Shown here: positions 39,898 through 42,863 of the stretch, one piece after another | How the letters are laid out: every line of letters begins with the position of its first letter | Numbering within the stretch: position 1 is the first letter of the stretch | The notes under the pieces: generated by a model | Seen by the model: the letters and a program-made list of their open reading frames with translations, nothing else | Databases searched by the model: none | What the model was told of the DNA's origin: nothing | Made by a program: the position numbers and the translations under genes | Origin: Thermoanaerobaculia bacterium | GTDB lineage: Bacteria; Acidobacteriota; Thermoanaerobaculia; Multivoradales; UBA5704 | Assembly: GCA_035996875.1 (NCBI GenBank) | Contig: DASYJD010000023.1 | Coordinates: 14,293 to 78,292 of the forward strand | Direction of reading: 5' to 3' | Length of the DNA stretch: 64,000 bases

Positions 39898-40692
39898 TTA
39901 CCTTCTCTCCGAAGAGACCCCGGCTCGTTTTGCTGCCGGGTCCTGCTGATAGAAGGCCCGCAGCACCTCGTAAAGCTCAGGGTGCTTGCGTTTGAGCTGC
40001 CCGCCCGTCTCAAAGAATGCCTCGGTTACCACTGCGAAGAACTCGGCCGGGCTGATGGCTCCGTAGGTGTCTATGTCAGCGGGCTTGTGCGTGGCGACCC
40101 GCGCGAGCAGCTCTTCGTACTCGGCACCGAGCGCGTGAGCCCATGCGGAATACGAGGAACGCCGGCCGAGGTCGGGCGCGCCGTTCATGGCGCCGTCTTC
40201 GGCGTCGAGCTGGTGCGCAAACTCGTGGAGCACGACGTTGCGTCCGTCGTGCGGGTCCGCCGCGCCGCGCTGGACAGCGTCCCACGCGAGCACCACAGCC
40301 CCGCGGACCCAGGACTCGCCGAGGCGCACCTGGTCGCTCTCGACGATGAGGTTGCCGAGTTTCTGGCGGGTGTTCTTGACGATGTATGCACTGGGATAGA
40401 CGAGGATCGACCCGAGATCGGGGTAGTAGCCGGTCTCTCGGTGCAAGAGGAGAAGGCAGGCCTGTGCCGCTATGGTGAGCTTGATCTCGTCCGTCATCGC
40501 GAGGCCGCCGCACCCTTCGAAGGTTTTCTCCGCGAGGAAGACCTGAATATGGCCCTCGAGCTCGCGTTGGTCGTCTTCGGACAAGGTGGAGACGTAGGGA
40601 ACGTTGCGCCGGATGATCGCACGCTGCTCGGCGGGAAGGGCTCTCCCACGCAGCTCCTCGCGTCGCCTCTTCTTAAAAAGGAAGTGAAACAC
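39898..40692 (-). CDS. MtfA-like zinc-dependent peptidase (M90 family)
   Basis: HEFAHQLD zinc-binding HExxH and overall similarity to Mlc titration factor A (…RRNVPYVSTL…GESWVRGAVVLAWD…). Confidence 0.8.
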   Translation of the reverse strand: MFHFLFKKRRREELRGRALPAEQRAIIRRNVPYVSTLSEDDQRELEGHIQVFLAEKTFEGCGGLAMTDEIKLTIAAQACLLLLHRETGYYPDLGSILVYPSAYIVKNTRQKLGNLIVESDQVRLGESWVRGAVVLAWDAVQRGAADPHDGRNVVLHEFAHQLDAEDGAMNGAPDLGRRSSYSAWAHALGAEYEELLARVATHKPADIDTYGAISPAEFFAVVTEAFFETGGQLKRKHPELYEVLRAFYQQDPAAKRAGVSSERR

Positions 40693-40827
40693 CGAGGAAA
40701 GTTACCACGCATCGACCTCGCCATCGGCGGTTCCAGCAACATCGCCGCTGCTCCCAAAAGACCCAAAGAGCCTGGCCCCTTGGCTGGCACCCAAGAAGAG
40801 CCTGGCGCTTTTGTGGACGGCCCATGA

Positions 40828-42159
40828 TCAGGCCGGCGGCCGGGAGACCTTCTCTCTCTGCTCACTGATCAGCTTGCCTTGCGCGTCCTCCACACGGACG
40901 ACGAATTCTCCTTCCGGGAGCATGAGCGCGGGAGCCGGCTTGCCCGCTTCGGCGACGATCTGATCGATGGGGACGGCATCCGTCCCCTCCTTGACCGGCC
41001 GGGCCTGAACCAGGCAGCGCGGCGCCAGGAAGCAGATCCCAGCGGCAAGCGGCAGAGGGGAGCGCAAACCGCCCATGCGCAGCCACGTGGGCCGGCCATT
41101 CTCATAACGGCTGCGCGGATGGAACACCACCACGTCGATCGCCGGCGAGGGGGACCAGAAAGCTCCCGCGGCGCTCCCGAGCACCATCGGCTCGGCGACC
41201 ATGCCGCGCTCCACCGCCCAGCGATAGAGCGGGTGCTCGAATTCCGGAGCGCTGTGCTCGGTCATGATCTCCTGATTGACCGTGAGCGGATCGATGCCCG
41301 TCGACTCCTTGAAGTACGCCGCCATCCACTTCGAGCCCGGGCTGGAAGCCGCCTTCAGGATGTGAGAGTAGCCGGCATGGACGAGCACCTTGGCTTTCGG
41401 GTCCTTCTGGAAGATCCGCTCGACGAGGTGCCGGGCCTGCTCGCGCTCGCGCAGTTCAATCCCCCCTCCGGGCTGGAAGCCCGAGTCCGCCTCGTACGGA
41501 ACGACTTGATAACCCAGGCGCAAGGCCGTCCGGACGAGGTCGCCGTAGAGAGGCTCCTGGATGTATGCGCCGGTCTCCGGGGTCGGATAACCCCGTTGGG
41601 CCAGGCCCGGGTCGGGACTGAGGGTCTCCGCGGCGAAGTAGGTGAAGCCCTTCCGACGGAGGGCGGCCAGGAGCTGCAGGGTGAACGCCCGATGCTGCGG
41701 GACGTGGTGGGCTTCGTTGATCATGACGACCTGGCGGGTCCCGGCCGCGGCCTCGATGGCCTGCAGCGCGCCGATGGGGCTATAGCCGTCGGGCCCGGAA
41801 GGGGACGGCAAGCTTTTCCACGGAGGGCCGCCGAGGTCGCCGTAGTGGTGTGCGCCGGCATAATCCCCGAGCCGCGGCATTACCTGCTGGGCGAGGATCG
41901 TCCGGATCACGTCGAGCGTCATGTCGTTTCCGGCATATTCGGCTTCCAGGGCCTGAAGGCCCTGCATCTCCGCGAGGACATTCCCGCTCTTCTCGATCCG
42001 GCTGAGCTTCCCGGAGAGCTGCTGGGCGGCGAGATTGAACCTCGCCACGTCGGATTGCGCGGCCGCCTGCGGCTGCGGGGCTGGAGCCGTCGCGGCCGGG
42101 GGCGCCGTCTGGGCCCCGGCGACGAGACCTCCCAGGCAGGCGAGCGCGACGGGGCCCAT
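40828..42159 (-). CDS. secreted Tiki/TraB/ChaN (erythromycin-esterase-like) superfamily protein, putative metallohydrolase or heme-binding
   Basis: Signal peptide MGPVALACLGGLVAGAQT (Met 125 of track ORF). VVMINEAHHVPQHRAFTLQLLAAL, FAAETL and LVHAGYSHI resemble the GxxH / E / HxGxxH landmarks of ChaN/Tiki proteins. Confidence 0.5.
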   Translation of the reverse strand: MGPVALACLGGLVAGAQTAPPAATAPAPQPQAAAQSDVARFNLAAQQLSGKLSRIEKSGNVLAEMQGLQALEAEYAGNDMTLDVIRTILAQQVMPRLGDYAGAHHYGDLGGPPWKSLPSPSGPDGYSPIGALQAIEAAAGTRQVVMINEAHHVPQHRAFTLQLLAALRRKGFTYFAAETLSPDPGLAQRGYPTPETGAYIQEPLYGDLVRTALRLGYQVVPYEADSGFQPGGGIELREREQARHLVERIFQKDPKAKVLVHAGYSHILKAASSPGSKWMAAYFKESTGIDPLTVNQEIMTEHSAPEFEHPLYRWAVERGMVAEPMVLGSAAGAFWSPSPAIDVVVFHPRSRYENGRPTWLRMGGLRSPLPLAAGICFLAPRCLVQARPVKEGTDAVPIDQIVAEAGKPAPALMLPEGEFVVRVEDAQGKLISEQREKVSRPPA

Positions 42160-42266
42160 CTTTGTAATCTTCAAGATCTCCTCCCGTTGGATTGAATTTA
42201 CCACAAGGGACAAAAGGGACTCCAGTTCTCCGAATTTGGATGAGACAGTTATTTCGTTACAGTTCC

Positions 42267-42863
42267 TTAGCCGACCCGCCTCATACGCCACCCCAGGGCA
42301 ATGAGAACGGCCACCGCTGTGCCGAGAATCGCCGGCCAGAAGAAATTGTGAGGAGAATCTGCGGTGCTCCGCGGCGAGCGAGCTACAGTCGACCCTGTGC
42401 CGAGCTGCTGCAGGTCGGCTGACGCGAGGGCGAGCTCGCGGGTACCCATGCATAAGTGAGTGGAATAGTCGCCGGTCGGGTCCAGGCTGGCATACACCAG
42501 GTACGTCTTGCCGACTTCGAAGACCCCGCAATCAGCGGGTCCGAAGGCTGAGAATACGGTGACTCGGTAAGGCGGAGCTCCCTTCCAGGCGCGGGAGATC
42601 GTGAGGTCGTAGGGAACAGAGAGCCATTGCCTCGCAGGCCGATGAAAGAAACCCCAGTCGTGGAGCTTGAGCTCCAACCCATGGAGCGCACGCTTTGCGG
42701 TGGGTTGGAACGTATGAGCTTGAACGACGGTCCCTGCGAAGACGAAATCGGCGTTGGCCGATGCAGCGGCCGGAGAAGCGGGTGGTCGACAGAGGCATGA
42801 CCCTACTGCTTGATTGGCTGTCAAAGTTCCTAACAGCAATCCGACGTGAACGAGTCTATTCAT
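42267..42863 (-). CDS. TIMP-like (NTR domain, tissue-inhibitor-of-metalloproteinase-like) protein with C-terminal TM anchor
   Basis: After the signal peptide the mature N-terminus would be CLCRPPASPAAASANADFVFAGTVV (compare TIMP [22 protein letters not shown]). Later KTYLVYASLDPTGDYSTHLCMGTREL (compare TIMP [26 protein letters not shown]). C-terminal AILGTAVAVLIALGW TM. Confidence 0.5.
   Translation of the reverse strand: MNRLVHVGLLLGTLTANQAVGSCLCRPPASPAAASANADFVFAGTVVQAHTFQPTAKRALHGLELKLHDWGFFHRPARQWLSVPYDLTISRAWKGAPPYRVTVFSAFGPADCGVFEVGKTYLVYASLDPTGDYSTHLCMGTRELALASADLQQLGTGSTVARSPRSTADSPHNFFWPAILGTAVAVLIALGWRMRRVG

Follow-up and report, generated by a model that had tools for sequence, protein, structure and literature searches.

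A membrane-anchored TIMP-like protein of a Thermoanaerobaculia bacterium and its large prokaryotic family

Gene A and its product

A 64-kb stretch of DNA from the metagenome-assembled genome of a Thermoanaerobaculia bacterium (Acidobacteriota), referred to here as the window, carries three genes, A, B and C, at positions 39898..42863, all on the minus strand. The present work deals with gene A, the product of which resembles the N-terminal domain of the animal tissue inhibitors of metalloproteinases (TIMPs), with the prokaryotic family to which it belongs and with its relationship to genes B and C. An initial annotation of the DNA had placed a protein of 198 amino acids (aa) with landmarks of the TIMP N-terminal, netrin-like (NTR) domain at 42267..42863, and this open reading frame (ORF) is confirmed on the minus strand. 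The features of gene A are as follows.

42267..42863, minus strand: gene A, encoding a 198-aa exported, C-terminally anchored N-TIMP-like protein
42798..42863, minus strand: signal peptide, aa 1-22 (MNRLVHVGLLLGTLTANQAVGS), with predicted cleavage before Cys23, as read from the sequence (V at -3, S at -1)
42393..42797, minus strand: N-TIMP/NTR-like OB-fold domain, aa 23-157, with C23-x-C25, ADFVFAGTVV, WKG, C112-G, YLVYA, C138 and DLxxLG
42270..42344, minus strand: C-terminal hydrophobic anchor, aa 174-192, and basic tail RMRRVG (helix 176-197 in the structure model)

The N-terminus of the gene A product reads MNRLVHVGLLLGTLTANQAVGS|CLCRPP, where the bar marks the predicted cleavage site, and so contains the motif C23-x-C25-x-P. 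ADFVFAGTVV, AWKG, DC112GVFEVGKTYLVYA, THLC138 and DLQQLG follow along the chain, and a linker then connects the domain to FFWPAILGTAVAVLIALGW-RMRRVG. The protein has four cysteines in all (C23, C25, C112 and C138). The sequence context puts a cysteine at position +1 of the signal cleavage site, and a hydrophobic helix with a basic tail is present at the C-terminus, both as the initial annotation had predicted. The ratio of nonsynonymous to synonymous substitution rates is 0.22-0.55 for gene A and 0.43 for gene B, indicating that both are real genes. The A-B-C arrangement is seen in two samples of one strain, and since the second, independent sample (L212) has the very same A protein and shares 8.2 kb of identical DNA, the arrangement is not an assembly artefact.

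The prokaryotic TIMP-like family

A homologue search with the A protein gives 22 relatives. When A is aligned with them, the columns of V41, F42, K94, G95, C112, G113, F115, Y121-A125, C138, A147, D150 and L154 do not vary, and those of C23, C25 and W93 hardly do. The family profile matches TIMP-2 (human and bovine) with E = 1e-6, TIMP-1 with 7e-5 and TIMP-3 with 2e-3, and agrin only with E of about 1. The alignment between the profile and the TIMPs starts at residue 1 of mature TIMP, on the first family cysteine, and the four cysteines of the family (C23, C25, C112 and C138) fall on C1, C3, C72 and C101 of TIMP-2. The landmarks pointed out by the initial annotation (Cys-x-Cys-x-Pro, ADxVFxGTVV and the YL segment) are not a chance resemblance: they occupy columns that vary little or not at all in a large family that aligns to the TIMP-2 cysteines. 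The relationship of A itself to the TIMPs is transitive, via its family, whose hidden Markov model (HMM) A matches with E = 3.8e-37.

In agreement with the profile matches, the AlphaFold2 model of A (mean pLDDT 76, above 90 in the barrel strands and 51-56 in an insertion) shows a five-stranded OB-fold barrel with NTR topology. The best 17 Foldseek matches of this model are all TIMP-1 or TIMP-2 with a probability of 1.00, and the template modelling score against N-TIMP-1, normalised to target length, reaches 0.69. Thus the structural comparison with TIMP-1/2 proposed by the initial annotation yields an OB fold and TIMPs alone at the top. Since the profile matches, the cysteine alignment and the Foldseek result agree, the TIMP/NTR assignment is right at the level of homology and not only of fold, and is stronger than had been claimed. 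It can be stated with high confidence that A belongs to the TIMP family, in which it is a divergent member of a very large prokaryotic branch (Pfam PF00965 / NTR superfamily).

A shares with the N-domains of metazoan TIMP-1, -2, -3 and -4 (PF00965, MEROPS I35) the OB-fold barrel, a Cys-x-Cys-x-Pro motif that immediately follows the signal peptide (in A, as predicted), the counterparts of cysteines C1-C70 and C3-C99, and the motifs xADxV(I/F), (F/W)KG, CG and YL(I/V). It differs from them in lacking the third N-domain disulfide (C13-C124), in having a membrane anchor in place of the C-terminal TIMP domain, in having Leu for Ser/Thr at residue 2 and in its prokaryotic host. In the clade of gene A, an insertion of some 25-30 residues also separates the first strand from the second, at the position of the TIMP A-B loop, where the model is of low confidence. 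A is thus no full-length TIMP; it has only four cysteines, and its barrel is followed by a linker and a transmembrane helix.

The initial annotation had regarded bacterial TIMP-like proteins as rare, which is not the case. In an exhaustive search with the family profile, 26,455 representatives of clusters at 50% identity match with E <= 1e-3, and 14,913 of them reach E <= 1e-10. Genome loci were located by a degenerate DNA pattern for WKG...CG...YLVYA with one genome per species, a sample biased toward canonical members, and at least 120 loci were found. The groups among the matches listed are Bacillales (Lysinibacillus, Brevibacillus, Paenibacillus, Oceanobacillus and others), cyanobacteria, Chloroflexota, Myxococcota, Acidobacteriota, Planctomycetota, Gemmatimonadota, Bacteroidota, Patescibacteria and a Nitrososphaera archaeon. 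The archaeal member, at 1730-2390 of a contig (L022) from a Nitrososphaera metagenome-assembled genome, is canonical, with AFA|CSC at the cleavage site.

Pfam TIMP (PF00965) is matched at E <= 0.01 by 70 of 131 family representatives, with a best value of 1.8e-10, and the protein P0149 scores 38.4 bits against the PF00965 cut-off of 23.1. NCBIfam recognises only C-terminal sorting signals in the same representatives, namely MYXO-CTERM in 16 of them, plus LPXTG, type IX secretion system (T9SS) and PEP-CTERM signals. About 73% of the single-domain members end in a transmembrane segment with a basic tail or in a sorting signal (MYXO-CTERM, LPXTG or the T9SS C-terminal domain). The RefSeq name of the family members is 'hypothetical protein', and UniRef and IMG already name several of them, including Bacillales proteins, 'Tissue inhibitor of metalloproteinase' automatically. 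Members named in this way in Oceanobacillus limi (A0A1H9Y8M7), Brevibacillus reuszeri (A0A0K9YN12) and Kallotenue papyrolyticum (WP_026370882.1) have the same architecture as A, with a signal peptide, CxC, a TIMP-like domain, a linker and a C-terminal anchor. A is 25-40% identical to them, and differs in falling below the Pfam threshold and in having the extra insertion and Leu2. TIMPs have been treated as an animal family and termed an 'ancient eukaryotic protein family' (PMC4860685), and according to the paper on Listeria Mtz-Tim no bacterial TIMP-like protein was on record (PMC8235301). The prokaryotic TIMP family, some members of which the databases already name, is experimentally untouched to judge by the literature searched, and A is a new, divergent member of it.

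The family is most uniform around its N-terminal cysteine. The residue at position -1 before the first Cys is Ala in 216 of 231 distinct members, 226 have a small or aliphatic residue (A, V, S, T, G, I, L or C) at -3, and a hydrophobic core (h-region) lies ahead of the cleavage site in 228; only 9 members have a lipobox-like sequence. To judge from these sequences, A-x-A|C-S-C conforms with unusual strictness to the canonical site of signal peptidase I, by which the first Cys is predicted to become residue 1 of the mature protein. Ser occupies mature residue 2 in 186 of the 231 members and Thr does so in 14, and Ser or Thr at this residue is also found in TIMP-2/-4 and TIMP-1/-3; at mature position 5, Pro is the commonest residue. 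The clade of gene A departs from the rest of the family in having V-G-S|C at the cleavage site and Leu at residue 2. In some family members (P0143, P0144, P0146 and P0150) the TIMP-like domain is present in two or three tandem copies or joined to regions of more than 700 aa. The internal copies of the tandem proteins turn CxC into CxxC or lose cysteines, which fits a special role of the N-terminal copy.

Genes B and C and the surrounding region

The features next to gene A on its downstream side are as follows.

40828..42174, minus strand: gene B, encoding a 448-aa secreted protein with a helical N-domain, an Ere/ChaN/Tiki-type alpha/beta domain and a C-terminal beta-sandwich
40763..40783, minus strand: hairpin and T-run between B and C, terminator-like by consensus scan (weak)
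39898..40692, minus strand: gene C, encoding a 264-aa MtfA-type M90 zinc peptidase without a signal peptide (cytoplasmic); PF06167 E = 3.9e-89
39781..42265: 2.5-kb strain-specific block of B and C, between A and the conserved glyoxalase-glyoxalase-M20 genes (blastn against L213)

Gene B starts with TTG at 42174, preceded by GGGAGGAG, within an ORF listed as 40828..42531. Its 448-aa product is identical to the NCBI protein P0023 from a Thermoanaerobaculia metagenome-assembled genome. More than 432 homologues, all unnamed, occur in Acidobacteriota, Gemmatimonadota and Planctomycetota. Neither Pfam nor NCBIfam has a model that B matches at threshold, and no PDB sequence matches it; PF04187 (ChaN) is matched with E = 0.02-0.034 at 15 bits against a cut-off of 27.7, and is likewise sub-threshold in 29 of 36 B homologues. 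The structure model of B is confident (pLDDT 88.7) and consists of the helical N-domain, a central domain with the alpha/beta fold characteristic of Ere, ChaN and Tiki proteins, and the C-terminal beta-sandwich. Its closest structural matches are esterases, a haem binder and effectors, and PMT, RRSP (9.5) and a TraB protein (8.3) are weaker ones. Of the two parts of the initial annotation of B, the assignment to the Tiki/TraB/ChaN superfamily holds at the fold level, and the description as metalloprotease-like does not hold beyond the fold superfamily, because the closest structural matches imply no protease activity. B is a secreted hydrolase-like protein of the erythromycin-esterase/ChaN/Tiki fold. 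It differs from the erythromycin esterase, ChaN, HopBA1 and Tiki-TraB proteins in having no curated model at threshold and in its extra helical N-domain and C-terminal beta-sandwich. In two other contigs (L008, 3479-5910, and L009, 3496-5903) a B homologue stands directly after a histidine kinase gene and an OmpR-type response regulator gene on the same strand; this pairing, absent from the window and from a clustering of 65 B loci, may indicate a regulatory link to the B family.

The product of gene C matches Peptidase_M90 (PF06167) with E = 3.9e-89 over 240 of the 243 profile positions and contains the HEFAH (HExxH) motif, so that the MtfA (M90) peptidase reported at 39898..40692 is borne out at the family level. 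It resembles E. coli MtfA in the full-length PF06167 match, in HExxH and in lacking a signal peptide. Its match to NCBIfam MtfA (E = 1.3e-33) reaches 116 bits against an equivalog cut-off of 400, indicating that C is a member of the M90 family and no strict MtfA orthologue. As read from the sequence, the N-terminus, MFHFLFKKRRREELRG, has no hydrophobic core, suggesting that C is cytoplasmic.

Contigs in which gene A is conserved at about 96% nucleotide identity (L003, L213 and L214) keep the frame of A followed by two glyoxalase genes (130 and 129 aa) and an M20 peptidase gene, and the genes that separate A from the first glyoxalase gene in them are those of an epoxide hydrolase and DinB in place of B and C. 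When L213 is compared with the window by blastn, gene A matches at 42266..42873 and the glyoxalase region at 39364..39780, and 39781..42265 of the window has no counterpart. B and C together are thus a 2.5-kb indel relative to sister contigs of about 93-97% nucleotide identity. Over window positions 36784-44880 the identity with L003, L213, L001 and L007 is 90-97%, but is confined to single genes or small blocks and ends at gene boundaries. The order of the blocks differs between the contigs, B and C replacing the epoxide hydrolase and DinB genes and a DinB piece being shifted upstream of A. The region 36784-44880 is a rearrangement hot spot, and the juxtaposition of A, B and C is a recent, strain-specific event within it. 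Duplicated fragments of genes are also present in this rearrangement-prone DNA. The DinB piece lies just upstream of A at 42982-43356 (minus strand) as a truncated DinB-family ORF of only the N-terminal ~100 residues, with sub-threshold DinB_2/DinB matches; an intact DinB gene of 169 aa lies downstream of A in L003 and L213. An integron cassette array was considered, since the identity ends where genes end and the genes between 36.1 and 46.4 kb are all on one strand. It was rejected, because spacer matches to the attC core-site motifs RYYYAAC and GTTRRRY occur at chance frequency and in inconsistent orientation and the spacers give no fold signal. No integrase-like gene was found among the ORFs scanned against Pfam, which cover part of the window. 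The spacers have no Rfam match, no tRNA and unremarkable fold z-scores.

Several repeats lie between the genes. A sequence close to GTGCCTGGGTCTTTTTGG (minus strand) occurs at 39305-39322, 42930-42947, 42960-42977, 48374-48391, 48418-48435 and 48617-48634, with degenerate copies in 40735-40815 and 46399-46420. It recurs between genes of the same strand, has two similar copies in L003 and overlaps the terminator-like hairpin after B. It gives no significant fold signal and no Rfam match, and may be a weak terminator, a protein-binding site or an element resembling repetitive extragenic palindromes. A 161-nt direct repeat of 84% identity has one copy at 38600-38760 and the other at 44818-44978. 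The first is upstream of a glyoxalase gene (38169..38558), within 811 bp that contain no convincing gene; the second covers the 3' end of a DoxX-like ORF at 44824..45639. A tandem duplication at 48210-48640, with a period of about 243 bp and units 93-94% identical, carries copies of GTGCCTGGGTCTTTTTGG, and a related element of about 97 nt is found at 39234-39330. A separate 94-nt repeat, 96% identical, is at 45700-45793 and 47480-47573. Two very large adjacent ORFs at 48711-52679 and 52711-58089 (both minus strand; 1322 and 1792 aa) have no Pfam match at E <= 1e-3, and the JGI gene calls for the same contig list no domains on them. The gene at 43401-44084 (minus strand), 0.5 kb upstream of gene A, encodes a DsbA-like thiol:disulfide oxidoreductase with a signal peptide and a CGYC motif (Thioredoxin_4/DSBA); its position is probably coincidental, since the pairing is not kept in contigs with A orthologues.

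Possible function of the tethered TIMP-like domain

The likeliest role of A is that of a metalloprotease inhibitor tethered at the cell surface, whose target is encoded at another locus or by another organism, a reading that is favoured with moderate confidence. The A protein would be exported by its Sec signal peptide and cut by signal peptidase I directly before Cys23, so that the mature chain would begin with Cys-Leu-Cys-Arg-Pro-Pro. Disulfides C23-C112 and C25-C138, the presumed equivalents of TIMP Cys1-Cys70 and Cys3-Cys99, would pin the N-terminal segment onto the OB-fold barrel, and the C-terminal transmembrane helix and basic tail would keep the domain tethered in the periplasm, on the outer side of the cytoplasmic membrane. 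By analogy with the TIMPs, the free alpha-amino and carbonyl groups of Cys1 may chelate the catalytic zinc of a metzincin-type endopeptidase, while residues 1-5 and the loop before Cys112 may fill the cleft at the protease's active site. A would then serve, at the end of its tether, as a shield against or regulator of extracytoplasmic metalloproteases from genes elsewhere or from other organisms, and, being held at the membrane, it would protect or regulate envelope proteins. That A inhibits in just this TIMP manner is nearly an even possibility, leaning slightly towards the negative.

Several observations weigh against such an inhibitor. A alone has no match in Pfam, NCBIfam or the PDB sequences in single-sequence searches. 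Residue 2 of mature A is Leu, neither Ser nor Thr, and the third N-TIMP disulfide and the entire TIMP C-domain are absent. V-G-S|C at the cleavage site agrees with the -3/-1 rule, yet it also satisfies a lipobox pattern of the permissive kind, and N-acylation of Cys23 would block the TIMP mechanism. No metzincin gene was found in the window, where an ORF scan flagged HExxH only in a doubtful 1213-aa ORF, the MtfA ORF with its HEFAH being displaced from the gene set of that scan. Nor is there a conserved protease neighbour at 108 loci of the family. HExxH occurs in 12 of 348 genes at one or two positions from family members as compared with 4 of 407 genes further off; only about four of these neighbours resemble real metallopeptidases by motif context, apparently of differing types, and none recurs across loci. 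One of the very few family loci with a plausible protease neighbour is that of a Pseudobdellovibrionaceae contig (L026), where a 628-aa protein with the metzincin-type motif HEMGHNLGLRH is encoded two genes upstream of the TIMP-like gene. A literature search gave no paper characterising any prokaryotic member of the family and no report of inhibition by one. Finally, many NTR modules, such as those of agrin, PCOLCE and complement C345C, are binding modules and not inhibitors.

If A is like these modules, its OB-fold domain would be tethered at the surface and would bind a polymer of the envelope or another protein, as agrin NtA, the PCOLCE NTR domain and complement C345C do, and would inhibit nothing. 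Such a role would suit the many kinds of cell-surface sorting signals in the family, the multi-copy members and those fused to large extracellular regions in the manner of adhesins, and the lack of a conserved protease partner. It is unlikely, though by some way the least unlikely of the alternatives, because the sequence similarity is specific to TIMPs and barely extends to agrin, because the TIMP-distinguishing Cys-x-Cys is kept exactly at the signal peptidase site in more than 90% of members with a strict Ala at -1, and because CxC degenerates in internal repeats. A second alternative concerns only the clade of A, in which Cys23 might be diacylglyceryl-modified (A-V-G-S-C), leaving the N-terminus blocked and the protein pinned to the membrane at both ends. 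The sequences ending at the Cys in this clade (AVGSC, AIGSC, AHGSC and VLGSC) do satisfy a permissive lipobox, and the TIMP-like Tim of Listeria is a lipoprotein (PMC8235301). Gly at -2 without Leu at -3 makes an atypical lipobox, however, lipobox-like sites are exceptional in the family, the C-terminal anchor would make a lipid anchor redundant, and the pairing partners of both N-terminal cysteines are conserved, so that lipidation is improbable. It is still less probable that Cys-x-Cys and the other two cysteines bind Cu or Zn in a periplasmic metallochaperone or sensor, since the four cysteines align one-to-one with two TIMP disulfides, A is extracytoplasmic and no metal-homeostasis genes are found among the neighbours.

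The initial annotation had favoured a protease plus dedicated inhibitor arrangement, in which A would inhibit the adjacent B and/or C and the three genes would form one module. The genes are indeed adjacent on the same strand with spacers of only 92 bp (A-B) and 135 bp (B-C), nothing resembling a terminator turned up between A and B in the consensus scan, both samples of the strain show the same arrangement, and A and B both have signal peptides and so share a compartment. Inhibitor genes directly upstream of protease genes have precedents in the potempins (PMC9890683) and Listeria Mtz-Tim (PMC8235301). Against this, the adjacency is confined to the strain with the identical A protein (L211 and L212). 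Orthologues of A at 93%, 87% and 65% amino-acid identity lack it, those at 87% and 65% having yet other neighbours, and none of the 108 family loci has a B or MtfA homologue nearby or any recurrent neighbour family. Conversely, B homologues at 85%, 62% and 57% identity have neither a TIMP-like nor an MtfA gene, nor have 80 further B loci; in an HMM scan of 84 B loci (579 kb) there was no TIMP-like and no MtfA match, where the same TIMP-like HMM finds A in the window with the E-value given above. The co-occurrence check that the initial annotation had called for, run on gene neighbourhoods, thus speaks against the pairing, as does the indel nature of B and C. C, having no signal peptide, is in another compartment than A, out of reach of an exported inhibitor. 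The proteases that TIMPs are known to inhibit are metzincins, which have no relationship in fold to Ere/ChaN/Tiki proteins, and the best structural matches of B are esterases and a haem binder. The hairpin between B and C also argues against a single module, but weakly, since terminator-like sites in the region are as numerous as expected from shuffled sequence. A dedicated module is therefore very improbable; A is very probably independent of B and C, which are unrelated passengers beside it.

Proteins of other bacterial systems provide only partial parallels to A as a tethered inhibitor. AprI/Inh proteins are periplasmic serralysin inhibitors (cited in PMC8235301) whose N-terminal residues reach the catalytic zinc, as in TIMPs. 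They belong to a family unrelated to A and, unlike A, are encoded immediately beside the target protease. Potempin A (PotA) of Tannerella forsythia is an envelope inhibitor of metzincins with an OB fold, also of an unrelated family; unlike TIMPs, it inhibits by internal loops without involvement of the N-terminus, and its gene is immediately beside that of the target protease (PMC9890683). Tim of Listeria monocytogenes, discussed as the partner of the metzincin Mtz, is like A a membrane-attached bacterial protein with a TIMP-like fold (PMC8235301). Unlike A, it is a lipoprotein with an LTAC lipobox, is TIMP-like by fold prediction only, 'but not in sequence', and is always encoded beside its metzincin and cleaved by it, whereas A has sequence-level homology to TIMPs, a C-terminal anchor and no linked protease.

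The idea specific to this locus, that a TIMP-like inhibitor is paired with a Tiki-like or MtfA protease, fails, and the locus itself is of modest interest. The significance lies with the family, with its sequence-level homology to TIMPs, its strictly kept cleavage site, predicted to expose Cys1, and its usual anchor. It is tentatively proposed, at somewhat less than even chances, that the prokaryotic TIMP-like family, with at least 26,000 clusters at 50% identity and extending to Nitrososphaera, consists of genuine surface-tethered inhibitors of zinc metalloproteases that use the Cys1 zinc-chelating wedge of animal TIMPs. If so, the 'metazoan' TIMP mechanism would be ancient or horizontally shared, the family would provide a widespread bacterial shield against foreign or self-secreted metzincins, and the Thermoanaerobaculia clade with its Leu2 and expanded A-B loop would be a specificity variant. 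Should its members inhibit metalloproteases, the family would represent a class of protease regulators in bacteria that is still unexplored, and would hold a clue to the origin of TIMPs.

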